64,000 bases of DNA from an uncultured Polaribacter sp. (GTDB taxonomy: Bacteria; Bacteroidota; Bacteroidia; Flavobacteriales; Flavobacteriaceae): contig NZ_CANLXV010000009.1 of NCBI RefSeq assembly GCF_947495205.1, positions 1,243 to 65,242 on the forward strand. Direction: 5' to 3'. The notes beneath the pieces were generated by a model that worked only from the letters and a program-made list of their open reading frames with translations, was not told the origin of the DNA and ran no database searches. Shown here one piece after another: positions 4,904 to 28,100 of this stretch. Within the stretch, counting starts at the first letter, position 1. Every line of letters begins with the position of its first letter. Made by a program: the position numbers and the translations under genes.

Positions 4904-7900
4904 ATGAAACTATCTGGAGAAATAACTCGTTTGAGAAAAATTAGTGTAATACTTTTTATTTTAATTTCAATCAACACTTATTCACAGTTTTTACATAGGA
5001 GTTGTGATAATGGTGCTTCAAGCTTTAATTGGAGCACAACACCAACTGGTAATAATAATTTTGACTGGGTTGATGGAGATTTAACAAATACACTTAATAA
5101 TGTAGATGGCAGCGGTATAAATATTACCTACACTTTTTCTGGAGAAACTACTGCTTTAGGTCAGTGGTTGGGAAGCACATCCACAACAAACTCTCCTGCT
5201 GTTGGTATAGATGCAGAACCTGCTGAGGCATTACAATTTTTTACAAATGGTTTTACAACAGGAGCTGGTGTAACAATTACAATAGAATTTAGTACACCTG
5301 TATTTTCTGTTGGTTTTGATTTGTTACATATAAACGGAAACGGAACTAATGGAGACAGATTTACAATTACAGCTATAGATACTTTTAACAATACAATTTT
5401 CCCGACATTTACTAACGCTTTGAACCCCTCATACACGTCAGATGAAAATACAGGAGTTATAGATTCTAATAATAGTGCTTCTGCAACCGGAGATGATGAC
5501 AATATTGGAGTAAATTTTTCTGATAACGAAAAAATAAACTCAATTACCATTGTTTGGCAAGACTGTACAGCTTGTACAGTTGGTGCAGTTCACGGAAGTG
5601 GTATTTCTGGATTAACTTTTTGTGAAAATTTTGATGATGTAGATGGAGACGGCGTTGCAGATAACGTAGATATTGATAATGATAACGATGGTATTTTAGA
5701 TATAGTAGAAGGAGCTTGTCCTGGAACTCCATTCACAACTACACCCGATAGAATTATCGTAAATAATGGTGGTACTGGAGCTTTACAAAGTATAGATGTT
5801 TCTACTTTAGGCCTAGAGGTTGGCAATTTAATTTCTGTTAGTAATGTGAGAGCAAGAGGAGATATTGATGGAGGTGGAGCAAATGAAACTTTTAGTTTAA
5901 ATTTTAACAACAACATTATAGATAGTGACTTATTTGTTAATACTGCCCAATGTAGTAATACTTTAGATGCTGTTTTTCCGCAAGTAAATAGAACATTAAC
6001 AGTAATTGATATTGGAGGTGGAACCCCAGGTATTACAATTCAAGCAACAACAGCTTCGGGTGTCGGTAATTTTTGTAATGATGGAGGTGCTTTTGCATTA
6101 GAATATACAGTTGATTTAAATTGTGTAACATCCAGAGATACAGATAATGATGGTGTTCCAGATTATTTAGATTTAGATTCAGATAATGATGGTATTCCAG
6201 ACAATATTGAAGCACAATCTACAAATGGTTATGTAGCACCTTCTGGTTTAGATTTTGATAGAGATGGATTAGATAATGCTTATGATGATACACCTTCAGG
6301 AAGCACTACAGGTATAGGTTCTAATGGAATTACACCTCAAAATTCAGACAATTTAGATAATCCAGATTATTTGGCCTTAGATTCAGATAATGATGGAATT
6401 GATGACGTGGTAGAATCAGGAAGTGGTTTAGCAGAATCTGGAGGTCAAGTTACAGGCACTGTAGGTACAAATGGTTTAGTTAATACTTTAGAGAATGCAG
6501 ATGATTATACAGACCCAAATGGATCTTTTGACAACACACAATTTGATAACTTTCCAGATTCTGATGGAGATATAAGTACAGGTGGTGATGCAGATTATAG
6601 GGATGTACCAGGAATAGATACAGATAACGATGGTGTTATTGATAGTGTAGATTTAGATGACGACAATGATGGTATTCTTGATACCGAAGAAGACTTTGGC
6701 TGTAATCTTATAGTAAATTTTGGATTTGAAGAAAGTTCAGCGCCTAATCTTGGAAATAATAGAGATGCAAATATTTCTCCATGGTCCAATATTGGAAGAA
6801 CAAATGTAATAAGGGTAGATGGTACCACAAATTATATGAATGGACCTAATTTTGATGCACGAGGTGGTGCTGGAAATTATTATGATATTGTAGGTGGTGG
6901 TAGTATTTATCAAACATTTACAATTGGTTCAGCAAGTTTAGTAAGATATGGTGGTTATTTTTCTGCAAGAGATGGAAGAACAAATATTTCTGGAGCCGAT
7001 ATTTTAATTAGGAATGGTTCTGGTAATACAGGAACAATAGTATCCTCATTAGGCAATCAGACGGTAACAAATGATTCTTCTTGGGATTTTTTCGAAGAAA
7101 CTACCTTTTTATCAGCAGGCACATATACTTTTGAAGTTATTATAGATAATTCTTTTAATTTTGACGAATGTTTTTTTGAATATTTAACTGGTTGTGATGC
7201 AGATAGCGATGGTATTCCAAATTCATTAGATTTAGATTCTGATAATGATGGTATTCCAGATGTTATAGAAGCTGGAGGTACAGATGCAAATAATGATGGT
7301 AAAGCAGATGGCGCTGTTGGTACTTCTGGAAACGTACAAGGTGTGCCAAGTTCTACAAATAATGGTACAGGAAACACCCCAACCAACTCAGATGGAGACA
7401 CTATACCAGATTTCTTAGATATCGATGCAGATAACGATGGTATTACAGATAATATAGAAGGGCAAACAACCAATGGATATATTGCCCCAAGTGGCGTAGG
7501 TCCTGGGATAACAGATGTCAACCAAAATGGAGTAGACGATAATTATGAAACAGAAGGTAATATTGGTGTAAACCCTACAAATACAGACAATGCAGATAAT
7601 CCCGATTATCAAGATACAAATGCAGATAATGATGTATTTACTGATGTCGATGAAAACGGAGACGCTGATCCTTTTGCACTAGCAGATTCCGATGGAGATG
7701 GTTTAATAGATGCTTTTGATGATAATGATGACTCTGGTATTTCTGGGTCTACTGTAAACGATGGAGTTACACCTACAACTAAAATTACAAATACCACAGA
7801 TATTGTGAATGTTTTTGGAGATGCAGATGGTGACATTGGAACAGGAGGAAATGTTGACTATAGAGATGTGCCAGGTTTAGATTCCGATAACGACGGTATT

Positions 7901-10900
7901 GCAGATGTAGACGATTTAGATGATGATAATGATGGTATTTTAGATACTGTAGAAGATGCCTGTGCTTCATTTAGAACACCTGTAAGACAGCTAGCAAATA
8001 ACGGACCAGTTACAGACTCACAAAACATTGATTTATCTTCTTTAGGAGTAATTATTGGAAGTCAAGTAACTTTAAATAACTTGTTAGCTGACGGAGATTT
8101 AACCAATCCTGGTACTGAAGTGTTTTCATTAAGCATAAACTCTGGTACCCCTATTACAGGTTTGCAAACCGGAGTAGATTGTAACGGGAGTTTAATTCCT
8201 GTTACATCACCTATTACAGAAACAGTAACTGTTATTGATATAGGGTCTGGAATACCTGGTATATCATTAGAAATTAGTTATCCTGCAGATGTAGATTTTT
8301 GTCCATTTAGGTTAGAATATACCGTTGATATTGCTCCTGTTTCTTGTGGTGCCCCTTTAGATACAGATGGAGATGGAATCCCAAACTCATTAGATCTAGA
8401 TTCCGATAACGATGGTATTCCAGATGTTATAGAGGCAGGAGGTACAGATGCAGATAGAGATGGTAGAGCTGATGGAACTGTTGGCACTACAATTACTACC
8501 AATGGAATACCAAGCTCTGCAGGAACAGGAAATACACCACCAAATTCAGATAGCGATAGCATTCCAAACTATTTAGATATCGATGCAGATAACGATGGTA
8601 TTCCAGACAATATAGAAGCACAAACTACAAACGGCTATACTGCACCAAGTGGAATAGCTAATGGTATTACAGACGTTAATAATAATGGTGTAGATGACAA
8701 TTATGAAACAGAAGCATTAATTGGTTTAAACCCTGTAAACACAGATAATACCGATAACCCAGATTATATAGACACAGATACAGATAATGATGGCGTTTTA
8801 GATATTGATGAAAACGGAGATGGAGATACTTTTAATATAACAGATACAGATGGAGATGGGTTAGTAGACGCTTTTGATGATAATATTGGTTTTATAGTAA
8901 ACGATAACCATAACCCACCAGGACCAGCTAATTTAGGTGATATAGATAATGATGCAAGCAGCCCTTTTGGGGATGTAGATTATAGAGATACTCCAGATGC
9001 CCAAGGTACACCAATGATAACTCAAGTATATCAATTTGATAGCGAAAGGTGGATAGAAATTACGAACATTAGTACAACCAATTCAATAGATGCCTATACG
9101 GTAAAAATTCAATTGTATAAAAATAGATCAGGAGATCAAACAGGTGTTGTGCCAGATGTGGCTTTTACTATTCCATCAGTCATACAACCTGGTCAATCTG
9201 TTTTATTTAGAGATGGAAATACCGTTTCAAGAAACATCACAAATACGGTTGCTACAAACCCCACTGTTGCTGCTTCTGTTATAGAAAACAATGCTATAAC
9301 CGCTATTGCTGATGCTAACGATATCATTACTTTATCTACCTCCATTTTTATAGATTCTTGGGAAAATCGTTATGATGTAGTGCAACAAGTTCCTAATAAA
9401 ACATCTTTTGTAAGAATAGATGAAACATTAGTACCTAATGTAACGTACACACCAGAAGAATGGGTTGTATTTATAGATGATGCATTAGATCCTTTTGAGT
9501 TTTTATCTACAGTAGCAGAAAGACACCCACATGATCCTTTAATCTCAGAAATCGAAAACGCTAATACAGATGCTAACACTTTATTAGGTTTACATCGAAT
9601 AGAAAAAACAACGAGAACAGCTGGTAGTTGGAACAACGGTTTCCCAGATAGATCTAGATTTGTGTCTATAGATGAGAATTACAATCACCAAAATGTAAGA
9701 CTGAGTGCACGTAAACTAGAAGTGTTAAATACTAATATTTTAGCTTTAGACAGTCAATTTTTAGTAGTTACAAACAATGTAAATATTGCAGACAATGCAG
9801 AGATTCGCTTAGTTGGTAGCAGCCAATTTATTCAAACCCATTTAGGAGGATCAGATATTTCTGGAAACGGTAAATTATATGTAGAGCAAAACTCTACTTT
9901 AGCAAATATTTACAGATATAATTATATGAGTTCTCCTGTAACTTCATTAAATACTGCCGCTACTTATACTGTAGAAGATGTTTTAAAAGATGGTACAAAT
10001 CCAGTATCATTTGCAGGTACTGTTGGTCAAGGAAGTACAGATATTGCTAGAGATATTAACTTTGTAGGTGGTTTTGATGGTAGCTTTGGTACACCAATAA
10101 ATATTGCAGATTATTGGATTTACGCTTTTTCTAGTGCGAACGGACAAAGAGCTAATTGGATTCAGAAATTTAAAGCTGGAATTATGAATAACACAGAAGG
10201 TTTTATATTTAAAGGTCCAGAAGTAGCACAAAACTATACATTTGTTGGAAACCCTAATGATGGTGATCTAAACGCATCTGTTGGTGCTAATGAGTCTTAC
10301 CTTTTAGGAAACCCTTACCCATCTTCTTTAAATGCTTTAAAATTTATAAAAGACAATTTAAACTCTATAGATGGTAGCGTGTATTTATGGGATCATGTTG
10401 GTGAGCAAGAAACAAGTGTCACAGATTCAAGAGGCCATAATTACAGAGGTTATGTAGGTGGCTATGCAACCATAAACCTTTCCATGTCTGTTGGCGCTTT
10501 AGGTTCAGCATCTGCTGCTGCTGCTGGTCCTTTTAATATTTCTATTGAAGCAGAAAATGCTGTAACAAATTCAACAACAGTAACAGACGGTGCACTAGAT
10601 GTGGTAACATTAAATAACGCTGCAGACTTTATACAATTCGATAGAATTACAAGAGCTACTGATAAAATTACATTAAGTTATAAAGCAAACACTACCAAAG
10701 GAATAAGAGTATTAGTAAACAATGTAGCAATAGGAAATTATGATTTAGACCCTAGTGGCAATGTTTACGCAGATTTTGATATTATAAGTTGTTTACCTGT
10801 TGGAGCCACCATTAGAATTGAATCTTTAGACGGTAATAATTTATCTTTAGATAAAATTAGTATTAGTGATGATGATGGTTTTATAAGTTGTGTTCCTTCC

Positions 10901-11818
10901 GCAGGATCAGATGCATCACTATTTAAAACACCAGGAACATATTTACCTATTGGTCAAGGTTTCTTTATTGGAGGAGATAGCAATGGTGGCCCAATAGTAT
11001 TTGACAATAGTCAAAGAGAATTTGTTTCAGAAGCCTCTGGAAATGCAGTATTCTTTAAATCAGGAAAAAAAGCTAAAGAAAATAACCAAAGTGCCAAATT
11101 TAAAAATGGAGACTTTAACAGACTGCCTTCTATTAAGTTAAGTATGGACTTTATGAATACTGAAGGAATAAGTTTAAAAAGACAAATAGGAGTTTCTTTT
11201 AGTAGTAACAATTCATTTGCGTTTGACAAAGGATATGACAGCCCTATTCTAGATTTAGGAGCTACAGATATGTATTGGAAATTTGAACAAGAAGAGGCAA
11301 AACTTGTAATTGCAGGTATTCAAAGTTTCTCTAAAGGTTTACAAATTCCTTTTGATGTTGTTATAGATTATGATGGCACTAACATTTTTAAAATAGATGA
11401 TATTTTTAATATTGATAGTGAAGTTTACCTTTTAGATAAGTTAACCAATAAAACGCAACTAATTTCTAAAGAAAATGAAGTTGGTTTACAGTTAAAAAAA
11501 GGAGTTTATACAGAACGATTTGCGCTTGTATTTAAAGAAAACACGGTATTAAATACAGAAAATACACAAGCAATTGCAAACGAAAATATAGCTGTTTACT
11601 TAGATGGAGGTTCAAATGAATTAGTCATTGAAAACAAACACAATCAAACTATTAATAAGGTAATAATTTACAATATATTAGGACAAAAAGTTTCTTCTTG
11701 GAACAATTTAGAATCTGCTACAGAAAACAGATTAAAAGTAAATAAATTATCAGAAACTATTTATATTGTAAATATAGAAACAGACAAAGGGTTTGTAAGT
11801 AAAAAGATAAAATTCTAG
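4904..11818 (+). CDS. giant secreted surface protein with thrombospondin type-3-like Ca-binding repeats, a lamin-tail-like domain and a T9SS C-terminal sorting domain
   Basis: 2304-aa ORF with a signal/anchor N-terminus. It has dozens of DxDxDGxxDxxD motifs ([16 protein letters not shown]). An LTD-like segment reads [10 protein letters not shown]...YTVKIQLY. The C-terminal about 80 aa ([11 protein letters not shown]...[19 protein letters not shown]) looks like a Por/T9SS tail. Confidence 0.85.
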
Positions 11819-11850
11819 ATACTAAAGAAAATTCTTTTCAAATAACTACA

Positions 11851-11886
11851 AAAGGTCTTTAAATTAAATTTTAAAGACCTTTTTTA
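11851..11886 (+). terminator. intrinsic terminator after the giant surface protein gene
   Basis: 13-bp perfect stem aaaggtctttaaa / tttaaagaccttt, loop ttaaat, followed by a T-run. Confidence 0.6.
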
Positions 11887-12225
11887 ATTTTATAAAGCGA
11901 AAACAGATATTTAAACAAAAGAATTCGTACTAACTATAAAACGTGGGGCGAAATTAATTAACTATTACATGTTTTTATAAACCATTTTTATAAACAAAAA
12001 TGTAGCTCTTTTTGAGCATATGCTGTTTATATATTTTATTGGTTTTTTTAAATCAAAATCTAAAAATTATAAACAAGGAAAATAATAAAAATGAAACTTC
12101 AAAAACATTATAAAGCCACTATTTAAGGTGCTGTAATTTATCTTTATTTACATAGATTTTAATAACAGATTTACAAAATTTATTTATTAATTATTTGATT
12201 TTTAGTATATTTAAATCAAAAAACT

Positions 12226-13113
12226 ATGATTAAACGAACACTTTTTTTCGCTAAAAAATTTTCTTTAACCACAAAAAACAATCAACTTGTAATAAGTAAT
12301 AATGAGGTACCAGACAAAACAATACCCATTGAAGATATTGGGTACATTGTTATAGAAAACCAACAAACCTATATTTCAATTCCTGCTTTAAATAAACTAA
12401 ATGAAAACAATGTAGCTGTAATTTTTTGTAATGAAAAACATTTACCACAGAGCATGTTGCTTACACTAGATAATCATCATATACAACATGAGTTATTTAA
12501 ACATCAAGTAAACGCTTCAGAACCTTTAAAAAAGCAACTTTGGCAACAAGTTGTACAACATAAAATACATAATCAGGCAGCTCTTTTACATAAAATTGGC
12601 AAAAACAAAAACCCTTTAGCCTACCATGAATCTAAAGTTTTAAGTGGCGATACAACAAACAGAGAGGCAGTAGCAGCTGCTTTTTATTGGAAAAACATAT
12701 TTGACTTCAATTTTAAAAGAGAAAGAACAGGTATCTACCCTAACCTCTTTTTAAACTATGGTTATATTATTTTAAGAGCCGCTGTTGCAAGAGCGCTTTC
12801 TGGAAGTGGCTTATTAAATACACTAGGCATACATCATAGTAATAAATACAATGCTTTTTGTTTGGCAGATGATATTATGGAGCCTTACAGACCTTTAATA
12901 GATGCTAAAGTGATTGAAATTATGCAAAAATATGATGAGCAGGATTTAATAACCCCTATAAAAATAGAATTGTTAAGTGTTTTAACCCAAACGGTATATT
13001 TTGAAGATAAAAAAAGCCCCTTAATGGTAGCTTTATCTAACACTACTAGTTCTTTACAAAATTGTTTTTTAGGAAAATCTAGAAAAATCAATTATCCAAA
13101 ATTATGGATTTAA
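12226..13113 (+). CDS. cas1: CRISPR-associated endonuclease Cas1 (type II)
   Basis: 295 aa. Cas1-like C-terminal catalytic region (LNTLGIHHSNKYNAFCLADDIMEPYRPLID). It overlaps cas2 by 10 nt and lies next to the CRISPR array. Confidence 0.9.
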   Translation: MIKRTLFFAKKFSLTTKNNQLVISNNEVPDKTIPIEDIGYIVIENQQTYISIPALNKLNENNVAVIFCNEKHLPQSMLLTLDNHHIQHELFKHQVNASEPLKKQLWQQVVQHKIHNQAALLHKIGKNKNPLAYHESKVLSGDTTNREAVAAAFYWKNIFDFNFKRERTGIYPNLFLNYGYIILRAAVARALSGSGLLNTLGIHHSNKYNAFCLADDIMEPYRPLIDAKVIEIMQKYDEQDLITPIKIELLSVLTQTVYFEDKKSPLMVALSNTTSSLQNCFLGKSRKINYPKLWI

Positions 13114-13433
13114 ACGCATATAGAATTATGTGGTTATTTGTATTTTTTGATTTACCAACAGAAACAAAAAAAGACAGAAGAAATGCGCAACTATTTCGTA
13201 AAAATCTTTTAAAAGACGGTTTTACAATGATGCAGTTTTCTGTTTACATGCGCCATTGTGCAAGCAGCGAAAGTGCAGATACTCACGAAAGACGCATAAA
13301 AACGTTATTGCCTCCTTTTGGAAAAGTAAGTGTATTAAGAATTACAGATAAACAATATGGCAATATTTTAAATTATTGGGGTAAAGTAGAAACCCCAAAA
13401 GAACCACCACCCATGCAACTTGAATTATTTTAA
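13104..13433 (+). CDS. cas2: CRISPR-associated endoribonuclease Cas2
   Basis: 109 aa. N-terminal WLFVFFDLPT beta-strand with the conserved Asp, then MQFSVYMR. The start ATG lies in ATGGATTTAA, which overlaps the cas1 stop and suggests translational coupling. Confidence 0.85.
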   Translation: MDLNAYRIMWLFVFFDLPTETKKDRRNAQLFRKNLLKDGFTMMQFSVYMRHCASSESADTHERRIKTLLPPFGKVSVLRITDKQYGNILNYWGKVETPKEPPPMQLELF

Positions 13434-13443
13434 CAGGATAAAA

Positions 13444-13490
13444 AAAATGCTTCAAATAAAGCAATTATGTCTTTATAAGAAGCATTTTTT
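13444..13490. terminator. bidirectional terminator-like hairpin between cas2 and the distal end of the array
   Basis: aaaatgcttc (13444-13453) pairs with gaagcatttt (13479-13488), with inner pairing ataaag/ctttat. An A-run precedes it and a T-run follows, so it could terminate both cas1-cas2 (+) and the array transcript (-). Confidence 0.5.
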
Positions 13491-13542
13491 ATTACGATAT
13501 TTTCTTTTAATCTTTTCAATATCAGAAGCTAACACAGCAACT

Positions 13543-16500
13543 AATATCGTCTTTTCTAATCTTTAATCAAACCACAACTGTAGATTAGTTTATTAGGTTC
13601 TAAAATTAATATCGTCTTTTCTAATCTTTAATCAAACCACAACTATTAAGTGTAATAATTAGTTTGTTAACTAATATCGTCTTTTCTAATCTTTAATCAA
13701 ACCACAACTTTTGTCCAACTTGGCATTCAGTTTGTATTAATATCGTCTTTTCTAATCTTTAATCAAACCACAACAAAGGCGCATAAGTTTTAAATTGATT
13801 AAATAATATCGTCTTTTCTAATCTTTAATCAAACCACAACCTGCTTGGGCTAATTCTGAATACAATGAAAAATATCGTCTTTTCTAATCTTTAATCAAAC
13901 CACAACTAATCAAGTCGTATTTAGGCAAAGGGTAAAAATATCGTCTTTTCTAATCTTTAATCAAACCACAACTCTACTTTAAATTTACCTTCTTTAAATT
14001 CAATATCGTCTTTTCTAATCTTTAATCAAACCACAACATACAGTAACCTGTTAACCTTAAATCTATTAATATCGTCTTTTCTAATCTTTAATCAAACCAC
14101 AACATGTGTTTTATTTTTTATTAATTTGTACTAAATATCGTCTTTTCTAATCTTTAATCAAACCACAACTTTTTAACTTCGTTAAATGATTTATGATTAA
14201 ATATCGTCTTTTCTAATCTTTAATCAAACCACAACTCTGGCGAATAAACATTAAGAGGTTGTTGCAATATCGTCTTTTCTAATCTTTAATCAAACCACAA
14301 CATTGCTATATCACACATATATTTTGTATTTAATATCGTCTTTTCTAATCTTTAATCAAACCACAACATGATATGCTATTATATATAAGTAAGGAATAAT
14401 ATCGTCTTTTCTAATCTTTAATCAAACCACAACTGTTTATTATTAGTCACTAAAACAAGTTCGAATATCGTCTTTTCTAATCTTTAATCAAACCACAACA
14501 ACAAAACATCTCTTAACGCTTCTTTATAGAATATCGTCTTTTCTAATCTTTAATCAAACCACAACTGCGTGTGCAAGGTGGTAGCAAAGAAAGTAAATAT
14601 CGTCTTTTCTAATCTTTAATCAAACCACAACTCTGTTCTATCTATATTTGTTGTAAATCTTAATATCGTCTTTTCTAATCTTTAATCAAACCACAACTAA
14701 CGGTGACAATGAATATATAGCAAACCAAATATCGTCTTTTCTAATCTTTAATCAAACCACAACATGATTGCAAAGGATTATGCAAAACACGTTAATATCG
14801 TCTTTTCTAATCTTTAATCAAACCACAACTCTATTTGTTTGTGTTTTTTCTTCATCTTAAATATCGTCTTTTCTAATCTTTAATCAAACCACAACCTACT
14901 TGCACCAAAGGCACTTTCTACAGCAAATATCGTCTTTTCTAATCTTTAATCAAACCACAACTTAAATGAGATGTGTAAAATATTAATTGAAAATATCGTC
15001 TTTTCTAATCTTTAATCAAACCACAACAATACCAACACAATGAGCAAAGAAATTAAGAATATCGTCTTTTCTAATCTTTAATCAAACCACAACTGCATCC
15101 TGATTAAATTGTAAAGATTTAACAATATCGTTTTTTCTAATCTTTAATCAAACCACAACTGATAATAGGAAAAGCTTTAAGTGATGTTTAATATCGTTTT
15201 TTCTAATCTTTAATCAAACCACAACACAAGATTAATTTGTTTTTGTAAAACAACTAATATCGTTTTTTCTAATCTTTAATCAAACCACAACATTAACCCT
15301 CTAACTGCACCAGTTAAACCAAATATCGTTTTTTCTAATCTTTAATCAAACCACAACATAAATTAATCATATTAACAAAGGCGGATTAATATCGTTTTTT
15401 CTAATCTTTAATCAAACCACAACACTTCTTTAAACTTGCCCCACGCAAATTTTAATATCGTTTTTTCTAATCTTTAATCAAACCACAACACCATCATCTA
15501 AAGAATAAGTAAAACATATAATATCGTTTTTTCTAATCTTTAATCAAACCACAACTTACAAATGGCGGATTACAGAAAATGACAAATATCGTTTTTTCTA
15601 ATCTTTAATCAAACCATAACTTACAAATGGCGGATTACAGAAAATGACAAATATCGTTTTTTCTAATCTTTAATCAAACCACAACTGGTCATAGACCAAA
15701 TACCAACTTCCACCTAATATCGTTTTTTCTAATCTTTAATCAAACCACAACTTACAAATGGCGGATTTAAGGCATATTGCAAATATCGTTTTTTCTAATC
15801 TTTAATCAAACCACAACTTACAAATGGCGGATTACAGAAAATGACAAATATCGTTTTTTCTAATCTTTAATCAAACCACAACTGGTCATAGACCAAATAC
15901 CAACTTCCACCTAATATCGTTTTTTCTAATCTTTAATCAAACCACAACTTAACGATAACGGATTTAAGGCATATTGCAAATATCGTTTTTTCTAATCTTT
16001 AATCAAACCACAACACGCTGTAATAGTTACTAATGAGAATATTTAATATCGTTTTTTCTAATCTTTAATCAAACCACAACTTCACAACTGTCCTGCCAAA
16101 TCTAGTGAGTAATATCGTTTTTTCTAATCTTTAATCAAACCACAACTTCGAGGAAGGCTTATTTACTGATTCTAGTAATATCGTTTTTTCTAATCTTTAA
16201 TCAAACCACAACTAGTAAGGTAACTTGCAATGATATAAGTTGAATATCGTTTTTTCTAATCTTTAATCAAACCACAACAGTGCGCTAGACTATTTTAATA
16301 AGTGGGGTAATATCGTTTTTTCTAATCTTTAATCAAACCACAACAAAAACAGTATTAATTCTTTAAGTTTAGGAAATATCGTTTTTTCTAATCTTTAATC
16401 AAACCACAACAGTTCGTCTTTTAATGATTCCATAGCTGTTAATATCGTTTTTTCTAATCTTTAATCAAACCACAACCAGTTAATGTTGGTACAATAGACG

Positions 16501-17002
16501 ATAGAAATATCGTTTTTTCTAATCTTTAATCAAACCACAACTGCATAATGTAAACGGCTACTGGGTAAGTAAATATCGTTTTTTCTAATCTTTAATCAAA
16601 CCACAACTATCACAAATCAATCAACGATAAAAACGAAAATATCGTTTTTTCTAATCTTTAATCAAACCACAACCTTTCATACGCACCCAATAATCACCTT
16701 TAAAATATCGTTTTTTCTAATCTTTAATCAAACCACAACTAACCAAACTTTACATTGTATTTTTTCTTGAATATCGTTTTTTCTAATCTTTAATCAAACC
16801 ACAACCTATGGTGGATAATCATAACTCTAGTAGGTAATATCGTTTTTTCTAATCTTTAATCAAACCACAACCCGGTTGCACTTATGAAGATATGCAGCTT
16901 AATATCGTTTTTTCTAATCTTTAATCAAACCACAACTCTATTTTCACCTTCTTACTCATGGCTATAAATATCGTTTTTTCTAATCTTTAATCAAACCACA
17001 AC
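13543..17002 (-). CRISPR. CRISPR array of 53 repeats of 36 nt and 52 spacers (44 x 30 nt, 8 x 29 nt); crRNA sense is the minus strand
   Basis: I enumerated every unit by hand. The plus-strand repeat is AATATCGT[C/T]TTTTCTAATCTTTAATCAAACCACAAC, which in crRNA sense is GTTGTGGTTTGATTAAAGATTAGAAAA[G/A]ACGATATT. Polarity follows from complementarity to the plus-strand tracrRNA anti-repeat at 21447-21472. Confidence 0.97.
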
Positions 17003-17060
17003 TGAAAATATGTCAAAGAACTTTATTGCTAATCTTAAGTAAATTCTATTTTAAGAATTT
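17003..17060 (-). promoter_or_regulatory. putative short CRISPR leader between the cas9 stop and the first transcribed repeat
   Basis: 58-bp AT-rich gap directly upstream of the array in crRNA sense. It contains TTGACA-like ctttgacatatttt. This is positional inference only. Confidence 0.35.
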
Positions 17061-20000
17061 TTATTTACAAAAACTTATTTTACCTGTTGATGATATTGTA
17101 AAATCATAACCTTGTACTAAAATATTTAATTTACTAACCTGAAGTCTAATCTGTTCTCTTTGTATATTAAAATCTACGCTATAAACTTCTTTTAATTCTG
17201 AAGCTTGTTTTGCTTCAGAATGTGGTCTAAAAGTGAGTCTTCCTTGAGCATCGAATTTCGCTAGTTTATAAAGTCTTTTTAACAAATCAAGTTTGGGTAA
17301 TTCTAAAATTTCATCAATGTTTTCATTATACATCAAAACCATATCACCTTTTTTTAAGATATACTTTAAAGGTAAATTAGATTTTATATGAGAACTTTCC
17401 ACTAAATTATAATTTCTTTTATGTTCATTATTACTAAATTTATAATATTCTCCAGCAGTAATATTATTTATAATTTGAAAATCACGTTTGAATCTTCCTT
17501 TTGAATTGGTTCCTTCATAAATGGCCATACAATAATTACCATCATTCTTAGCAAAAACATGTTGTTTATGTTCGTGCTTAGAAACATCTCTATGTTTTTT
17601 AATTTCTAAAGGAACTTTTACATCTGTAGTAAAATATCTTATTTTTTTTATTGGTATTGGGTTGCCATTTTTGTTTGGTAATTTATAAAGTTCATTTTCT
17701 ATTTTGTTAGTTAGACTTTCTATTTGCGCTCTAATTATTACTTCTTCTTTATCATTTACTTTGTTAATTTGCTTTTTTAAAGATTCAATTTCTTTTTTTA
17801 AGGCCTTTTCTTGTTTTCTACTTTCTGTTACAATCTCTTTAATTTTATCATCAACAATATTTTTTAAATCTGTATCAGAAAAATTTTCTAATGGTTTTCT
17901 TAATACATATTTAATTACTTCTTTAGTTTCTCCTTTTTTATCTGTTTCTTCTCTTTTTATTGCACCGTAAAAACTTTCTTTATGCAAAGCTCCCCTAACA
18001 GTATCACCTTTTTTGTATTTAATTTCTCCTTTTGCATTTCTTTGTATAATACCACGTTTACGAATGGCTTTTTTACTTTGAATAGGCAAAACGTCTGGAA
18101 CATGATGACTAATTAAAATATTCTCATCAAAATTTTTAACGTCTTTATTAAATCCCTTCCAAGGAATTCTATGTTGAAAAGATGGTTTTGGTTTACCATA
18201 ATATTTATAATCTTCATAATTATGATAATATGCTGCCAAAGCATCATTTATATCTTTAGAACAACAAGCAACAACTACTGCATCTTTTGCATGGTGTGCA
18301 TGATTTATTCTTTCTTTTTTATCTAAACCCCAAATATCTCTTAAATTAGATGTTGTTTTTCCTTTTACAGGATATACTTTTGTAAACAAAGACTTTAAGA
18401 ATAAGTTGCCATATTTACTAATAATGCCAATATCTACAGATTGACTGTTTTTAAAATTTCTAGGAATTTCAGTTATCGTAAAAGTTTTGTATTTGTCTTT
18501 CAAGTAGTTATGCTCAAAACGTAATTTGGTTCTTTTTTGTATATTACCATCTCTACTCTCTTTTGTTGCAGCTACTCTTACTTTTTTTGTAAGATCTCTA
18601 ATTTGTTTATCTAAACTTTTATATTTAGCAAACCAATGTTTTATTCTGGGTAAAATTTCTTCATGATTATTACATTCACTTGGTATTTTATTCTTTTTTA
18701 AATCTCTGTTATAAACTGAACAACATAATGTTTTATTAATTTGAGAATTATCTAAACTTTTACTTCTTGGTATGGTATGTTCTATGTCAAATTTGGGGTT
18801 TGCTCCTATAAAATCACAAATACTTATATTTTTACCTGTGTATAAGCAAACTCTGTTTTGCTCAATCCAAAGTTGATATTTTAAAACGTCATCTTGTGAA
18901 GGTTCAATATCTAAGTTGCATTGTTCTTTGTACAGTTTTTTTATAGCATCTGTGTATTCTTTTCTATTATTTTGAAGCTCATTTTGCCATTGTCTAATAG
19001 CAACTCTTTCATTGGCACTTTTAAGTTCTCTTGCCATTTCAATACGAATAATCGTATTTTCATCTATTACATCTTCTTTAATTAATTGATTAATAACTTT
19101 ACGCAACTGATGCAAAGCACGCATTGCCATGGGGTTTTTAATAGAAGAAATTAATGGGCTACCTAAGTATAATTTACCATCCTTATCACTTCTCTTCGCT
19201 TTATTATAAACTTCAATGGCAGATGGATGATAGAGCTTCTTTAAACTATCTTTATTTACATTAAAATTATCTCTTAAAAAATCTTTTACACGTTCATCTA
19301 ATGTTTCTTTTTTCAAAAATTCTCCTCGACCGGTATTTAATTTCATTTGAACAGAAAAAAGAGTAAAGCTATCATCTAAAATTGTTTGTTGCTCTTCTTT
19401 AGAAAACGATTCCCAGAGTTTTAAACCATAATAACTTTTAATGTTTTTATGAATATCTTTTTTATAAGCTTTAATTACAAAAGAATTATTTTCATTCCAA
19501 GTTTCCTTATTGTCTTTTACATTTTTAATTAAACCGTTAATAATATCAACTTTGTTTCTGTAAATATTGTAGGTATTAATAATTGAAAAAATTTCTTTAT
19601 TAATTATTTTTCTATACTCATTATTATCCCAAATTTCTTTTGGTAAAACAGTTTTTAAGTTTGCTAAAAACACAGCATGCGAATACAATAAGCCTTTTTC
19701 TAAATAAGGTAAAATGTTACGTATTGCCTTTAAACTTAAAGAACCATAATCTTGTTTTAGTTTTATTTTTGAAAATTTAACAGCTGTTTTTTCATCACAG
19801 TTTAAATATTTAATAACAAATTGTTTCAGCTTTTCAGTTTTATCAAACCTAAAAAGCACGTGCCAAATAGCATCAATAATTTGATGTTCTGTTTTATCAG
19901 AACCGTCTTTATTTTTTTTGTTAAAATTTTTAAGTAAATAAGTTTTCCAATCTTCGCCAAAAACTGCTCTTAAATTGGCAATTGTTGGGCAACCACTAAC

Positions 20001-21338
20001 ATTTGTATAATTACCAAAATTAAACAAGACATCAAAATCGCCTTTATTTTTATCTTTATAATATGCTGACTTTAAATTTTTGGGAGTTAGTTTATTTGCT
20101 ATTTCTGAGAAATCAAAATTTGGTTTTGATTTTCTATAAAAGAGTGGTTCTAAAATTGCTTTTTCTTTTGAATTTAAAAACCTTAATTTATCTTCTTCTG
20201 CTGTCTTAATTTTTACTGAATTTAAAAAACTAAACATTCTAAACAACTCAAAATCTGGATGTGAAATTGGTACACAAGCTTTATCATTTTCTAACGGACA
20301 TTTAGCAACTAAACCTTTTTGAGATTTTAATGGTCTTTGATAAAAAATAGCGTTTTCTATAGCTTCTTTTAATGATGTTTCTAGATTTTGTTTATCACAA
20401 ATTGTATTGAATTCTTGTAAATAATGTTCTTCTCTATGTGTGTAATTATTTCTTATTCTTATGCTATTTTTATGTAATCCATAAAAATACTCGCCTAAAG
20501 TATTACAATTTGCTTCTTGCATTTTAGTTGATAAATCGCTAATTGCGCTTTTAACTTTACCTAAAAACTCTTTTCGGTTTAAACGTTCTAATAATTTATC
20601 TTTTACAATATCAAATGCTACATTTATATTTTCTTTTAAGATAGCTTTAAAGGCTCTTTCTAGAGTAAATAAAGCTTTTGTATTAGCTTCTGCTTTATCA
20701 TAACCTTGAAGAAATTCGCCATAATTCTGTAAAAAACCCTTTGAATTATTGGCTTGTTGTATAATTTCTTCTATCTCACTATTTTTATCTTCAACAATAG
20801 AATTATCTGAAGTATCTAAACGATTACTTAAAAAACCACGTCTTTGTGCCATATGATAAAAAGCTCTTCCAAGTTCATGTTTATCACTAATAGTATTTAA
20901 ATTAAGTTTTTCTGTTGATGCTTTGAAACGAAAATAATAAGGATTTTTTACTTGCTCTTTTCGTGCTACTTTATCATCTTGATTATCTGTACTTAACCAT
21001 AATCTAAACGCATCATTTTTAGGATAAATCTTTTTGTATCGCCAGAGTTCTAATTCATCATCAGTCAATTTAGGACATAAATTATAGTCTGATAAAACTT
21101 TTAATAATTCAAGTTTCCTTAATTTTCTTCTGTATTTTAATTTTCTTGCACTTCTATAATCCGTTCTTTGTGCCGCTTTTGAACTTTCACTACTTGTTTT
21201 AGCTTCTATATTTACTCCTTCTGTAAAAATCCTAACACCTTTGTCTAAAAGTTTAAAATGTTTTTCACTTTTCTCTTTTTCAACAACTGCCCAACCAATA
21301 CTATTAGTTCCTAAATCTAATCCTAATATTTTACTCAT
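17061..21338 (-). CDS. cas9: Cas9 endonuclease, type II-C
   Basis: 1425 aa. RuvC-I ILGLDLGTNSIGWAVV (Asp8), Arg-rich bridge helix RSARKLKYRRKLRK, RuvC-II IRIEMARE, HNH DIEHTIPRS...NKTLC and RuvC-III HHAKDAVVVA. No csn2 or cas4 in the locus, which indicates subtype II-C. Confidence 0.97.
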   Translation of the reverse strand: MSKILGLDLGTNSIGWAVVEKEKSEKHFKLLDKGVRIFTEGVNIEAKTSSESSKAAQRTDYRSARKLKYRRKLRKLELLKVLSDYNLCPKLTDDELELWRYKKIYPKNDAFRLWLSTDNQDDKVARKEQVKNPYYFRFKASTEKLNLNTISDKHELGRAFYHMAQRRGFLSNRLDTSDNSIVEDKNSEIEEIIQQANNSKGFLQNYGEFLQGYDKAEANTKALFTLERAFKAILKENINVAFDIVKDKLLERLNRKEFLGKVKSAISDLSTKMQEANCNTLGEYFYGLHKNSIRIRNNYTHREEHYLQEFNTICDKQNLETSLKEAIENAIFYQRPLKSQKGLVAKCPLENDKACVPISHPDFELFRMFSFLNSVKIKTAEEDKLRFLNSKEKAILEPLFYRKSKPNFDFSEIANKLTPKNLKSAYYKDKNKGDFDVLFNFGNYTNVSGCPTIANLRAVFGEDWKTYLLKNFNKKNKDGSDKTEHQIIDAIWHVLFRFDKTEKLKQFVIKYLNCDEKTAVKFSKIKLKQDYGSLSLKAIRNILPYLEKGLLYSHAVFLANLKTVLPKEIWDNNEYRKIINKEIFSIINTYNIYRNKVDIINGLIKNVKDNKETWNENNSFVIKAYKKDIHKNIKSYYGLKLWESFSKEEQQTILDDSFTLFSVQMKLNTGRGEFLKKETLDERVKDFLRDNFNVNKDSLKKLYHPSAIEVYNKAKRSDKDGKLYLGSPLISSIKNPMAMRALHQLRKVINQLIKEDVIDENTIIRIEMARELKSANERVAIRQWQNELQNNRKEYTDAIKKLYKEQCNLDIEPSQDDVLKYQLWIEQNRVCLYTGKNISICDFIGANPKFDIEHTIPRSKSLDNSQINKTLCCSVYNRDLKKNKIPSECNNHEEILPRIKHWFAKYKSLDKQIRDLTKKVRVAATKESRDGNIQKRTKLRFEHNYLKDKYKTFTITEIPRNFKNSQSVDIGIISKYGNLFLKSLFTKVYPVKGKTTSNLRDIWGLDKKERINHAHHAKDAVVVACCSKDINDALAAYYHNYEDYKYYGKPKPSFQHRIPWKGFNKDVKNFDENILISHHVPDVLPIQSKKAIRKRGIIQRNAKGEIKYKKGDTVRGALHKESFYGAIKREETDKKGETKEVIKYVLRKPLENFSDTDLKNIVDDKIKEIVTESRKQEKALKKEIESLKKQINKVNDKEEVIIRAQIESLTNKIENELYKLPNKNGNPIPIKKIRYFTTDVKVPLEIKKHRDVSKHEHKQHVFAKNDGNYCMAIYEGTNSKGRFKRDFQIINNITAGEYYKFSNNEHKRNYNLVESSHIKSNLPLKYILKKGDMVLMYNENIDEILELPKLDLLKRLYKLAKFDAQGRLTFRPHSEAKQASELKEVYSVDFNIQREQIRLQVSKLNILVQGYDFTISSTGKISFCK

Positions 21339-21439
21339 AATTCATAGCTTTTTTTTGAATTTTAAAAATACGGAAAAGAAAATTTAACTTTTACGGATTC
21401 CCATAATTTTATTAAATAATTTTTAATTATATTTACACA

Positions 21440-21527
21440 GATTAAATTTCTAATCTTTAATCTTATCACAATAAGGCTATATGCCGTAGATGAAAATCTT
21501 TAGTCCTGCTTAGGTAGGACTTTTTTT
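21440..21527 (+). ncRNA. tracrRNA: tracrRNA, divergent from cas9
   Basis: The anti-repeat at 21447-21472 can form 24 bp with crRNA repeat nt 1-26, interrupted by a 2-nt UU/UU internal loop. It is followed by AAUAAGGCUAUAUGCCG (nexus-like GGC/GCC hairpin, 21475-21485), AGAU-GAAA-AUCU (21488-21499) and the terminator GUCCU...AGGAC plus U7 (21503-21527). The 5' end is estimated from a TAtaTTTa box at 21428-21435. Confidence 0.8.
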
Positions 21528-21594
21528 GTGCCTTAAGTTTTTACTAAATACCTTTTATTTCTCGTACATTTGCAACTCATTATCAAATTAAAAA

Positions 21595-22855: not shown

Positions 22856-25054
22856 ATGATTAAAAAATTATTCCTTTTTATTTTTACCGTTGCATCTTTA
22901 AATGTTTTTTCTCAAGTACAATCTTATTACAGCGATGTAGATTTACAATTAACAGGTGTAGCCTTAAAAAATGCACTGGCAACTAAAATTACAGCAACTC
23001 ATGTTAATTTTTTAGATTATACACCAGATGTTTGGACTGCCTCAAAAGCAACGGACGTAAACCCAAATAACCCAAATGAAGTTTTATTAATTTATGGCTT
23101 TGAAAACGGTTCTGATAGCAATTTAGAAAACGATAGAACTAGAAACATTAACGTGAATGGTGGTGCAGCTTCAGATTGGAACAGAGAACACGTATTTGCT
23201 AGATCTCTTGGAAACCCCAATTTAGGAACAGTAGGTCCTGGTGCAGATGCGCATCATTTAAGACCAGCAGATCCTGGTAGAAATTCTTCTAGAAGTAATC
23301 GAAAATTTGGAAGAGGAACAGGTAATTCTGGTTTTTCTTCATTAGACACTCATCAAGGAAATGATGGCCCAAATACAGCGGCTTATTATCCTGGAGATGA
23401 ATGGAAAGGAGATGTTGCAAGAATGATAATGTATATGTACGTGCGTTATGGTAATGTTTGTTTACCAACTGCAGTTGGCGTTGGTAGCAATACAAATACG
23501 CCAGATGACATGATTGATTTATTTTTAAAATGGAATGTAGAAGATCCTGTTTCTGATTTTGAAAGAGCTAGAAATACCTATCATGAAAACACCAATAATG
23601 CTGCTGCACAAGGAAATAGAAATCCTTTTATAGACAACCCATTTTTGGCAACAAGAATTTGGGGTGGAGATTCTGCACAAGATACTTGGGGAATTTATAC
23701 ATCTAATGATAGAGAAGCACCAACAGCACCAACAAATGTAACAATTAACAACATTACTTTTACTTCCTTTAATATTTCTTGGACAGCATCTACAGATAAT
23801 GAAGCGGTAACCGGTTATGATGTTTTTGTTGATGGAACTTTAGCAACGCAAACCACTACCACTAATGCTACCCTTACAAACCTAACACCAAATACTAGCT
23901 ATGCAATAACAATTTTAGCTAAAGATTTAGTAAATAACAAATCTGCATTAAGTACTGTTGCAAATGGAACAACATTAGCAGATACTGTTGCTCCTTCTAT
24001 GCCTACTAATGTTATAGCTAACAATATTTCAGACACTTCTTTTACGTTTTCTTGGACAGCATCTACAGACAACAATGCAATTGCTTCTTATGATGTTTAT
24101 TTAAATAATCAATTAGACCAAAACGTAACAGGTACAACTGCTATTATAACTGGGTTGGCAGCAACAACAGCATATACAGCATACGTTATTGCAAAAGATA
24201 CCTCTGGTAATGTTTCTGTAAAATCTAACACCATAACTGTTACTACTATAGAAGGTGGCAATGGTGTTGCAGACGAATTATTTATTTCTGAATATGTAGA
24301 GCCAAATACCGGAAACAACAAAGCCATAGAAATTGTAAATCTTACAGGTAAAACTGTAAGTTTAGCTGGTTATTCTTTGCAAAAACAATCTAATGGAGGC
24401 AGTTGGGTAGATAATTTAGCATTAGACAATCAAAGCTTTATTTTACAAGGTTCTTCTGCAAGTATTTTACCAAATGATGTTTTTGTAATTATACACTCTG
24501 GAGCATCAGAAACAGAGTTAACTAGCAATGCAGATATGGAAGTACCAAGCAATGCTAATCCGCCTTATCAATTTGCATCACCTTTAAACTTTAATGGAAA
24601 TGATCCTGTTGGATTGTATAAAAATGGCGTTTTAATAGACATGGTTGGAGAGTTAAATAACTCTAGCAACCACATACAAAACATTACCTTAAGAAGAAAC
24701 GGAGATATTAGCAAACCCAACCCTGTTTTTAGTGAACAAGGAGAATGGGAAGCATTTCCTGTAAATACCTACAGTGGTATTGGTTCTTTTACGAGTACAT
24801 TAAGTACAGAAGACAACCAAATTTTAGACGCCATAAAGATTTTCCCAAATCCTGTAAAGGGAAATAACCTTTCTATTTCTAATAAAGAAGCGGTTACTCT
24901 TAAAATTTATAACGTCTTAGGTACTTTGGTAAAAACAGAAAAATTAAAAGCAAACGCTAAACAAATAGATATTTCTGCATTAACTTCTGGTGTGTATTTA
25001 ATTAATTTTATTTCTGGAGAAAAAACTAGCAGTAAAAAGTTTATAAAATTATAA
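22856..25054 (+). CDS. secreted endonuclease I fused to 2 x FN3, a lamin-tail-like domain and a T9SS C-terminal sorting domain
   Basis: 732 aa with a signal peptide. Endonuclease I-like motifs WNREHVFARS, AHHLRPAD and GNRNPFIDNP. Two FN3-like repeats (PTNV..I..SF..SWTASTDN). LTD-like ELFISEYVEPNTGNNKAIEIVNLTG. C-terminal FPNPV...LKIYNVLG...GVYLINF tail. Confidence 0.85.
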   Translation: MIKKLFLFIFTVASLNVFSQVQSYYSDVDLQLTGVALKNALATKITATHVNFLDYTPDVWTASKATDVNPNNPNEVLLIYGFENGSDSNLENDRTRNINVNGGAASDWNREHVFARSLGNPNLGTVGPGADAHHLRPADPGRNSSRSNRKFGRGTGNSGFSSLDTHQGNDGPNTAAYYPGDEWKGDVARMIMYMYVRYGNVCLPTAVGVGSNTNTPDDMIDLFLKWNVEDPVSDFERARNTYHENTNNAAAQGNRNPFIDNPFLATRIWGGDSAQDTWGIYTSNDREAPTAPTNVTINNITFTSFNISWTASTDNEAVTGYDVFVDGTLATQTTTTNATLTNLTPNTSYAITILAKDLVNNKSALSTVANGTTLADTVAPSMPTNVIANNISDTSFTFSWTASTDNNAIASYDVYLNNQLDQNVTGTTAIITGLAATTAYTAYVIAKDTSGNVSVKSNTITVTTIEGGNGVADELFISEYVEPNTGNNKAIEIVNLTGKTVSLAGYSLQKQSNGGSWVDNLALDNQSFILQGSSASILPNDVFVIIHSGASETELTSNADMEVPSNANPPYQFASPLNFNGNDPVGLYKNGVLIDMVGELNNSSNHIQNITLRRNGDISKPNPVFSEQGEWEAFPVNTYSGIGSFTSTLSTEDNQILDAIKIFPNPVKGNNLSISNKEAVTLKIYNVLGTLVKTEKLKANAKQIDISALTSGVYLINFISGEKTSSKKFIKL

Positions 25055-25185: not shown

Positions 25186-28100
25186 ATGATTCATTTCTTT
25201 GGAAACAAAAACAGTAAGGTATTTGCTGTTCAAACAACAAAAGAATTTACCGCAGAAACTATTGCCAAATTAACATGGTTATTTGGTGACGCACCAAAAA
25301 TAGACGAGGCATCAATAGATGCTTTTTTTATTGGTCCAAGAGCGGCAATGATAACGCCTTGGAGCACAAATGCTGTAGAAATTACCCAAAATATGGGAAT
25401 TTCAGATATCATTAGAATTGAAGAATTTATGGCTATATCAGAAGATTTTGCCGACTTTGATCCTATGATTTCAGAGAAATTTAAAAGTTTACATCAAGAA
25501 TCATTTACCGTAAAAGTGCAACCAGAAGCTATTTTAGAAATAGAAAACGTTGCCGCGTATAACAAGCAAGAAGGTTTATCTTTAAGTGATGAAGAGGTTA
25601 CTTATTTAGAAAGTGTAGCAAATAAAATAGGAAGAAAGCTAACCGATTCAGAAGTTTTTGGTTTTAGTCAAGTAAACTCAGAACATTGTAGGCATAAAAT
25701 ATTTAATGGAACTTTTGTAATTGATGGTGAAGAAATGCCAACTTCATTATTCAAATTAATAAAAGAAACATCAAAGCAATTTCCTAACGATATTGTTTCA
25801 GCATATAAAGATAATGTTGCCTTTGTAAAAGGACCTAAAGTAGAGCAATTTGCGCCAAAAACAGCAGATAAACCAGATTTTTATACAACCTCAGATTATG
25901 ATTCTGTAATTTCATTAAAAGCAGAAACACATAACTTCCCAACTACTGTAGAGCCTTTTAATGGCGCTGCTACAGGCTCTGGAGGAGAAATTAGAGATAG
26001 GCTTGCTGGCGGAAAAGGATCTTTACCCTTGGCAGGAACCGCTGTTTACATGACTTCTTATTCTCGTTTAGAAGAAAACAGGTTTTGGGAACACAAATTC
26101 AAAGAAAGAAATTGGTTATACCAAACACCAATGGACATTTTAATTAAAGCCTCTAATGGTGCTTCTGATTTTGGTAACAAATTTGGGCAACCTTTAATTA
26201 CAGGTTCTGTTTTAACTTTTGAGCATGAAGAAAACAACTCTTCTAGTGAGGCTCCTGCAAGAAAATTAGGGTTTGATAAAGTAATTATGCAAGCTGGTGG
26301 TATTGGCTATGGCAAAGTAGAACAAGCTTTAAAAGATACGCCAAAAGAAGGCGATAAAATTGTAATTCTTGGTGGAGAAAACTATAGAATTGGTATGGGT
26401 GGTGCTGCAGTTTCTTCTGCAGATACAGGAGAATTTGCTTCTGGTATAGAATTAAATGCCGTACAACGTTCTAATCCAGAAATGCAAAAACGTGCCGCAA
26501 ATGCAGTTCGTGGAATGGTAGAAAGTGAAGAAAATTTTATTGTTTCTATTCACGATCATGGTGCTGGTGGCCATTTAAATTGTTTGTCTGAATTAATAGA
26601 AGATACTGGTGGAAAAATAGATTTAGATAAATTACCCGTTGGAGACCCAACCTTGTCTGCAAAAGAAATAATTGGTAACGAGTCTCAAGAAAGAATGGGC
26701 TTGGTTATTGCAGAAAAGCATACAGAAACCTTACAAAAAATAGCAGAAAGAGAACGCTCGCCAATGTATACTGTGGGTAATGTTACTGGCGATAATCGTT
26801 TTACTTTTGAATCTAAAACCACTGGAGAAAAACCAATGGATTTAGCTTTAGAAGACATGTTTGGTTCTTCTCCAAAAACAATAATGACAGACAAAACTAT
26901 TGTTAGAAAATATAAAAACCCACGTTACAAAACTAAAAACTTACAAATTTATTTAGCCCAAGTTTTACAATTAGAAGCTGTAGCTTGTAAAGATTGGTTA
27001 ACAAACAAAGTAGATAGGTGTGTTGGTGGTAAAGTTGCCAAACAACAATGTGTGGGTCCATTGCAAATTCCATTAAATAATGTTGGCGTAATGGCTTTAG
27101 ATTTCAAAGGTAAAGAAGGCGTTGCTACTTCTATTGGCCACTCGCCTATTTCTGGATTAATTCACCCAGAAGCAGGTAGTAGAAATTCTATTACAGAAGC
27201 ATTAACCAATATTATTTGGGCACCTTTAAAAGACAATTTGGCTTCAATTTCATTATCGGCAAATTGGATGTGGCCTTGTAAAAACGAAGGTGAAGATGCA
27301 CGTTTGTACAAAGCTGTTAAAGCAATTTCAGAATTTTCTATAGATTTAGGCATTAATGTACCAACTGGTAAAGATTCTTTGTCTATGAAACAGAAATATG
27401 CTGATGGTGATGTAATATCTCCTGGAACAGTTATTATTTCTGCAGCAGGAAACTGTAATGAAATTACTAAAGTTGTAGAACCTGTTTTACAGGCAAATGG
27501 CGGCAATATTTACTATATAAACATATCTCAAGACGAATACAAATTAGGTGGAAGTTCTTTTAACCAGACTTTAAATGCTATTGGAAATGAAGCGCCAGAT
27601 GTTACAAACGCTCCTTATTTAAAAAACACATTTAACACCATTCAGAAATTAATTAAAGCAAATAAAATTAAGGCTGGGCATGATGTTGCTTCTGGTGGAT
27701 TAATTACTACTTTGTTAGAAATGTGTTTTGCTGATGTAGATTTAGGTGCAAATTTTGATATTTCTGAACTGAACGAAGAAGATTCTATAAAAGTATTGTT
27801 TTCAGAAAATGCAGGTATTGTTTTTCAAGCAGACCAAACTGTTGAAGGTATTTTAGAAGAAGCCGGAATTGTAGCTTTTAAAATTGGTACCGCAAACAAT
27901 TCTGGTGAGGTTGTAATTAAAAACAACGAAGATAAGTTTAGCTTAAATGTTTCAGAATTTAGAGACGTTTGGTACAAAACATCGTATTTATTAGACGATA
28001 AACAAACGGCAAATGGTTTGGCTAAAAACCGTTACGAAAACTTTAAAAAGCAACCTTTACAATACACTTTTCCAAAAGATTTTACAGGAAAATTAGAGGA

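Follow-up and report, generated by a model that had tools for sequence, protein, structure and literature searches.

A type II-C CRISPR-Cas locus of an uncultured Polaribacter with the convergent gene order standard in the Flavobacterium columnare-type lineage

The 64,000-nucleotide stretch of contig NZ_CANLXV010000009.1 of an uncultured Polaribacter sp. (assembly GCF_947495205.1), hereafter the window, contains a type II-C CRISPR-Cas locus in which the repeat array lies between cas9 and a convergent cas1-cas2 pair. The cas1 gene (12226-13113, plus strand) encodes a type II integrase subunit of 295 aa that matches Pfam Cas_Cas1 and TIGR03639 (cas1_NMENI), the latter with 294.5 bits against a cut-off of 120 and with 277 of the 278 model positions covered. 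It overlaps by 10 nt with cas2 (13104-13433, plus strand), whose 109-aa product matches PF09827 and TIGR01573, the latter at 64.7 bits. The array itself spans 13543-17002 and is separated by a gap of 58 bp (17003-17060) from cas9 (17061-21338, minus strand), which runs in the same direction as the array and encodes a large Bacteroidota-type II-C effector of 1425 aa. Cas9 scores 425.5 bits with TIGR01865 and also matches Pfam HNH_4, RuvC_III and Cas9_RuvC. Its RuvC-I (DLGTNSIGWA), RuvC-II (IEMARE), HNH (DIEHTIPRS...NKTLC) and RuvC-III (HHAKDA) motifs can be read directly, 14 aligned homologues all share the catalytic residues, and the nearest solved structures are those of II-C Cas9s. Upstream of cas1 extends a region of 407 bp (11819-12225) with a GC content of 19-22%. 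The gaps at 11819-12225, 13434-13542, 17003-17060 and 21339-21594 contain no open reading frame (ORF) of 50 aa or more. The ORF list, NCBIfam and Pfam revealed no csn2 or cas4 in the locus, the flanking genes being unrelated to either, and the subtype is II-C because both genes are absent. Every element was confirmed at these coordinates by ORF listing, by Tandem Repeats Finder and by scanning the sequence directly for repeats.

The array (minus strand) is composed of 53 repeats of 36 nt, GTTGTGGTTTGATTAAAGATTAGAAAA[G/A]ACGATATT, and 52 spacers of 29-30 nt, of which 49 are unique. Position 28 divides the repeats into two blocks, with a G in the 24 repeats proximal to the leader described below and an A in the 29 cas9-proximal repeats. 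The repeat contains a TTG (positions 2-4) and a TTTG (positions 8-11), without a complete -7 box. Inside the array, a duplication at 15556-15978 holds the spacer TTACAAATGGCGGATTACAGAAAATGACA three times and the spacer TGGTCATAGACCAAATACCAACTTCCACCT twice; the spacer at 15752-15781 looks chimeric, two others being joined at a common CGGATT, and the repeat at 15585-15620 has an additional C-to-T change. The trans-activating CRISPR RNA (tracrRNA; ~21440-21527, plus strand) diverges from cas9 and comprises an anti-repeat, a nexus-like hairpin, a second hairpin and a terminator, whose hairpin at 21502-21521 is followed by a T-run. Bases 1-24 of the repeat are paired by the anti-repeat, giving 24 bp interrupted by a 2-nt bulge, at an energy of -47.4 kcal/mol versus -27.9 +/- 2.5 kcal/mol with shuffled anti-repeats. 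With the tracrRNA on the plus strand, the CRISPR RNA (crRNA) must come off the minus strand, that of cas9, as follows from the polarity of the anti-repeat and from which strand carries the tracrRNA terminator. Rfam gave no family at gathering score anywhere in the window. These coordinates and strands agree with the sequence-only reading of the same DNA, which had described an intact-looking set of type II parts (cas1, cas2, 53 repeats, cas9 motifs and tracrRNA), a II-C subtype, a convergent layout of cas1-cas2 (plus) against array and cas9 (minus) with a divergent tracrRNA, a 58-bp cas9-array gap and a separate AT-rich region before cas1.

The order of these parts was compared among relatives. 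An alignment of 15 Cas9 homologues was used to fetch 80 related loci (cited by L numbers below) from one-genome-per-species contigs, and cas9, cas1, cas2 and the arrays were located in each; the 64 loci that contain cas1 form the informative set. A co-directional cas9-cas1-cas2 arrangement is present in 50 of these, while the window order, cas9> array> <cas2 <cas1, is present in 14, all from Flavobacteriaceae or Flavobacteriales. The convergent loci belong to Gelidibacter, Confluentibacter, Lacinutrix, Formosa, Lutibacter, Algibacter, several Flavobacterium including F. covae, and metagenome-assembled genomes. Similarly, all four of the closest named isolates that were looked up, Lacinutrix sp. 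Bg11-31, Aureibaculum conchae, Polaribacter sp. L3A8 and Flavobacterium sp. 102, are convergent, amid unrelated flanking genes. The order therefore recurs in 18 independent loci from at least nine genera, complete genomes that show it being CP025118 and CP047026. Repeats of the convergent loci lie 0-4 substitutions from the F. covae-type repeat GTTGTGGTTTGATTAAAGATTAGAAAACACGATATT, the window repeat lying one substitution away. A near-identical tracrRNA is located upstream of cas9 on the opposite strand in 17 of 17 examined loci with the window-type repeat, mostly ~115-180 nt from cas9 (~400 nt in L003), and is usually preceded in the relatives by the Bacteroidota TAnnTTTG box. The window Cas9 is 74-77% identical to the Cas9s of Gelidibacter, Lacinutrix, Aureibaculum and Polaribacter; its Cas1 is 60-79% identical to those of the other convergent loci, and its Cas2 shares 74-91% identity with 17 of 18 convergent loci and 52% with the F. 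covae locus L031. The convergent order is the standard architecture of the F. columnare-type II-C lineage, odd-looking but normal, and the earlier claim of an unusual layout is not borne out, close relatives (the 14 scan loci and the four isolates, the F. columnare/F. covae type included) being commonly convergent.

The gap of 109 bp between cas2 and the array is filled by a putative leader (13434-13542, minus strand), the candidate integration end, which abuts base 36 of the last-transcribed repeat. In relatives this segment measures ~105 nt where nothing is inserted, and a 16-locus alignment covering at least eight genera gives a mean column identity of 78%. Its distal half, 13442-13490, consists of an A-run, a hairpin and a U-run, with compensatory changes in 8 of the 18 hairpin pairs, and the first 50 nt past the last repeat are also conserved, beyond the terminator part. 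This half is predicted to be able to act as a terminator for transcripts of the array as well as for the cas1-cas2 mRNA. Hoikkala et al. 2021 (PMC8092290) studied a F. columnare II-C system with the window-type repeat. In their account, base 36 of the repeat is leader-proximal, transcription of the array runs towards the leader, parDE separates cas9 from the array, and a cas1 deletion mutant no longer acquires spacers. Type II-C systems acquire spacers at the last repeat, the first repeat being the oldest, 'extra' one (Feussner et al. 2025, PMC12080349). For the 'F. columnare common' primer with which Hoikkala et al. read the variable end, the best match lies 125-133 nt past the last repeat and within the 3' end of cas2 in eight of the 10 loci compared, among them the window, with three mismatches; the primer could not be mapped on F. 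covae L031 at three mismatches or fewer and was placed in the other loci by best ungapped match. In line with acquisition at the last repeat, all convergent loci have an intact last repeat, while degeneration or truncation at the 5' end affects the first, cas9-proximal repeat of L019, L020, L031 and L043. Because the leader fills the cas2-array gap, base 36 is leader-proximal and the array is read towards the leader, cas1-cas2 would adjoin the spacer-integrating end, as in Neisseria-type loci, an assignment made by homology with the F. columnare experiments. The adaptation genes would then be 'distal' with respect to transcription only, with the cas9/tracrRNA module alone on the other side. 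Thus, the suggestions that cas1-cas2 face a functionally distal array end and that the specification of the integrating end is a puzzle do not hold: the gap is a conserved leader, II-C integration takes place at the last-transcribed repeat (PMC12080349, PMC8092290), and the question is already answered by published II-C biology together with that leader.

Two further features were seen around the repeats and leaders of related loci. A small palindromic element, GGTTTACAAACAC ... GTGTTTGTGAATC, is seemingly inserted in or beside repeats and leaders, splitting repeats after GTTGTGGTTT, in eight loci (L003 at 15305-15600, L022, L031 at 15200-15530, L032, L040, L041, L082 and L084) and is absent from the window. 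In the co-directional Bacteroidales/Marinilabiliales loci L008, L009, L010, L016, L042, L053 and L067, the tracrRNA is located between cas2 and the array on the same strand, and the last repeat, not the first, is degenerate, which hints at an integration polarity opposite to that of the flavobacterial lineage.

The opposite border of the array is marked by a 13-nt motif, GTTCTTTGACATA (17009-17021, minus strand), positioned 6 nt upstream, in the crRNA sense, of the first and oldest repeat. The motif has the consensus GTTC[T/A]TTGACATA and a single exact copy in the window. It occurs once per locus in 17 of the 80 fetched loci, always just upstream of the array in the crRNA sense and in any gene order, as exemplified by L052:14323-14335, and may represent a promoter or a boundary element. 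In many convergent relatives a partial, inverted repeat copy stands after the motif in the cas9-array interval and folds, together with the first 12-14 nt of repeat 1 and the adjoining flank, into a long hairpin. The flanks of this hairpin vary between loci with complementarity kept (covariation), sites including L001:14879-15000, L003:14329-14450, L052:14323-14450, L079:14795-14925 and L084:13890-14000; the hairpin is missing from the window, where it has been lost. A hairpin of this kind agrees with a published proposal in which an extraneous crRNA is suppressed by such structures. A search of the window for an autoregulatory target of a possible extraneous crRNA showed no enrichment of matches to the 15-nt stretch upstream of repeat 1.

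The locus is most readily explained, with a probability of roughly 0.85, as a functional-looking II-C locus of the lineage that includes the F. columnare system, carrying the lineage-standard order tracrRNA< cas9> array> leader <cas2 <cas1. The parts, their strands, the conservation of leader, repeat and tracrRNA and the frequency of the layout are direct observations; the integration end and the transcription starts we infer as follows. Cas1-Cas2 would be made from their own promoter region upstream of cas1 and would integrate spacers at the repeat abutting the conserved leader, by the cas2 stop codon. The array would be transcribed on the cas9 strand, from its old end to the leader, through repeat-internal starts, read-through from cas9 or both, and its transcripts would end at the leader hairpin. 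The divergent tracrRNA would pair with the first ~24 nt of each repeat and load Cas9. Repeat-internal promoter elements of the TTG/TTTG kind have been proposed for F. columnare (PMC8092290), and it is possible that read-through from cas9 couples effector and guide expression. A scan for sigma-70 promoters, which is not suited to Bacteroidota, gave fewer matches than shuffled sequence.

Several observations weigh against this explanation. The blocks of G and A repeat variants are compatible with either polarity. The window has an intact first repeat and, between cas9 and the array, no terminator, so that by itself it does not show the polarity, and the F. columnare polarity evidence is transferred to the window by homology. 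An exact TAnnTTTG box was not found upstream of the window cas1, cas9, tracrRNA or array. Protospacers were not found either: a BLAST search with the whole array against 50,697 phage records returned only chance matches to Klebsiella and Staphylococcus phages, and exact-match scans of IMG/VR with leader-proximal, duplicated or seed spacer portions returned no matches. Concerning the origin of the layout, neighbour-joining (NJ) trees place the convergent Cas1 clade nearest to Bacteroidales/Marinilabiliales loci ordered cas9>cas1>cas2>tracrRNA>array, from which more than one step is required to reach the window order.

Among the other explanations, the one that survives best, although improbable, is a polarity like that of type II-A, with the leader at the cas9-proximal end, the motif and the 58-bp gap acting as leader and promoter, new spacers being added beside cas9, and the cas2-side sequence being only a shared terminator. 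The conservation of GTTCTTTGACATA upstream of arrays, the intact first repeat of the window and the degenerate last repeats of the co-directional Bacteroidales relatives would all suit it. However, the cas9-array distance varies between 40 bp and ~1.1 kb and accommodates insertions (parDE in F. columnare and a GIY-YIG ORF in L084), truncated or degenerate first repeats are found in four loci while the last repeats are always intact, and the conservation of the 50 nt after the last repeat extends past the terminator. In addition, the variable end of the F. columnare array was sequenced from the cas2 side, and cas2-proximal acquisition is reported there (PMC8092290). A remnant locus, decaying or inactive, is less probable still, as is a false join of two partial loci in the assembly. 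The lack of protospacer matches in the phage and viral collections and the internal duplication of the array are what such an origin might leave, but the three cas ORFs are full-length, with strong family scores and catalytic motifs, the 53 repeats are near-identical with 49 unique spacers, and the same order is present in the complete genomes CP025118 and CP047026. A rearrangement of the textbook II-C operon that is rare or specific to this genome, with the adaptation genes at the wrong, distal end and leader specification left open, can be dismissed as very improbable, for although the order does differ from those of Neisseria and Campylobacter and of the 50 co-directional loci, 18 independent loci in at least nine genera share it, the cas2-array gap is a conserved leader and published II-C biology puts integration at the last-transcribed repeat.

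As to how the convergent layout arose, we infer its origin from gene order in relatives. The leader is similarly designed in L002 and L033, where the order runs cas9>cas1>cas2>leader<array<motif, and it is plausible that a single inversion of a cas1-cas2-leader-array block relative to tracrRNA-cas9, starting from this Neisseria-like order, gave the order of the window. The ancestral inversion proposed by the sequence-only reading is therefore retained in part: a rearrangement is plausible, and the block that moved would be cas1-cas2-leader-array, neither cas1-cas2 alone nor cas9-array.

The phylogenies of Cas9 and Cas1, whose comparison that reading had called for, are in conflict. Trees were built for 61 loci with both proteins full-length, using NJ, a crude method, with 100 bootstraps. 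Sixteen of the loci are convergent (the window, L001, L003, L006, L018, L022, L032, L041, L043, L052, L077, L079 and L081-L084), and their Cas1 proteins, that of the window included, form one split in 100/100 bootstraps. The Cas9 proteins of the same 16 loci form a single split in 0/100. They fall instead into a window-type clade of seven loci and a F. columnare-type clade of eight, each recovered in 100/100, with L041 as an outlier, and Cas1 follows neither of these clades (0/100 each). The conflict is independent of rooting. A mosaic of identity is also apparent within Cas9, at its C-terminal ~125 aa (residues ~1300-1425; 17064-17441 in the window), which is probably the PAM (protospacer adjacent motif)-interacting end. 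Relative to the otherwise closest Cas9, that of Gelidibacter (L001), identity is mostly 75-90% and drops to 25-44% at the C-terminal end, whereas relative to the Cas9s of Confluentibacter and F. granuli (L003 and L052), which belong to the other clade, it is mostly 30-65% and reaches 62-65% at that end. These patterns suggest that the effector module has been exchanged. In F. psychrophilum, recombination is reported to have replaced the cas9 of a flavobacterial II-C locus (PMC10309648). Because the repeat and the tracrRNA are near-identical across genera, crossovers in the arrays or at the boundary motif could swap cas9. It can be proposed, tentatively and with the odds rather against it, that the array lying between the effector and adaptation modules serves as a recombination hinge, at which crossovers would exchange cas9 or its PAM-interacting end while the adaptation module and the memory stay in place. 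Such a hinge, if true, would account for the mismatch of the Cas1 and Cas9 clades, for Cas1 relationships that cross the Cas9 clades and for the mosaic Cas9 C-terminus. The conflict between the two trees and the boundary motif are leads on effector-module exchange and on the start of array transcription in Bacteroidota.

Other spacer comparisons concern targets and siblings. No PAM could be derived from the phage and viral searches; the PAM reported for F. columnare is NNNNNTAAA. No spacer matches elsewhere in the window at up to five mismatches, which would indicate self-targeting, and no spacers are common to 21 related arrays. Sibling strains were not found in metagenome scans using the oldest spacer and the motif-repeat junction. 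The neighbours of the locus, classed as housekeeping genes, encode a type IX secretion system (T9SS) cargo protein, RsmB, a secreted nuclease, PurL and RecG, and type IX cargo proteins flank the CRISPR locus on both sides. One of them (22856-25054, plus strand, 732 aa) is a predicted secreted nuclease with Endonuclease I, fibronectin III and lamin-tail domains and a Por sorting tail; in the other (4904-11818, plus strand, 2304 aa) the sorting tail is the only recognised part. A 1229-aa ORF at 25186-28875 was considered as a Cas13b partner and proved to be PurL.

The closest known system is that of F. columnare/F. covae, represented by L031, which shares with the window the order cas9> array> leader <cas2 <cas1 and the divergent tracrRNA. 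The repeats are identical at 35 of 36 positions, the exception being position 28, where F. columnare/F. covae has C and the window G or A; the tracrRNA core is near-identical, and the leader is homologous, ~105 nt long and with poly(A)/poly(T) around the hairpin. The Cas1 of F. covae L031 is 64% identical to that of the window. In contrast, the F. columnare/F. covae Cas9 belongs to a different clade and is only ~41-44% identical to the window Cas9. The window also lacks the parDE insertion (the cas9 stop and the first repeat are ~0.9-1.1 kb apart in L031, against a gap of 58 bp in the window), and, unlike F. columnare, it has no cas13b/VI-B partner within 64 kb. The locus thus adds to a known, experimentally studied II-C type and gives no support to the claim of an unusual layout; it carries little weight as an oddity, the layout being lineage-typical and its logic explained by published type II-C biology. 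What it does add is an intact 1425-aa Cas9 of a second clade, combining the guide scaffold of the F. columnare enzyme with a different, probably PAM-interacting, end.

In F. psychrophilum, the II-C locus had one cas9 replaced by another with cas1, cas2 and the array in place, which provides a precedent for the tree conflict seen here, although its co-directional order, tracrRNA-cas9-cas1-cas2-array, is unlike that of the window (PMC10309648). The textbook II-C systems of Neisseria meningitidis, Campylobacter jejuni and Riemerella anatipestifer have the same gene set, without csn2 or cas4. Like the window, they contain a cas1>cas2>leader<array unit; in them the array is read towards the leader and spacers are added at the last repeat (PMC12080349), as would also hold for the window. 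They differ in that the window cas9 and tracrRNA lie beyond the old end of the array, with cas9 on the strand opposite cas1-cas2, so that cas9 cannot be co-transcribed with them. The window Cas9 is ~350 aa longer than the textbook II-C Cas9, and the extended -10 box of the Neisseria repeat is absent from the window repeat, which has only the TTG ~33 nt upstream of the spacer. In this comparison of loci, the invariant unit of type II-C is cas2-leader-array and not cas9-cas1-cas2.

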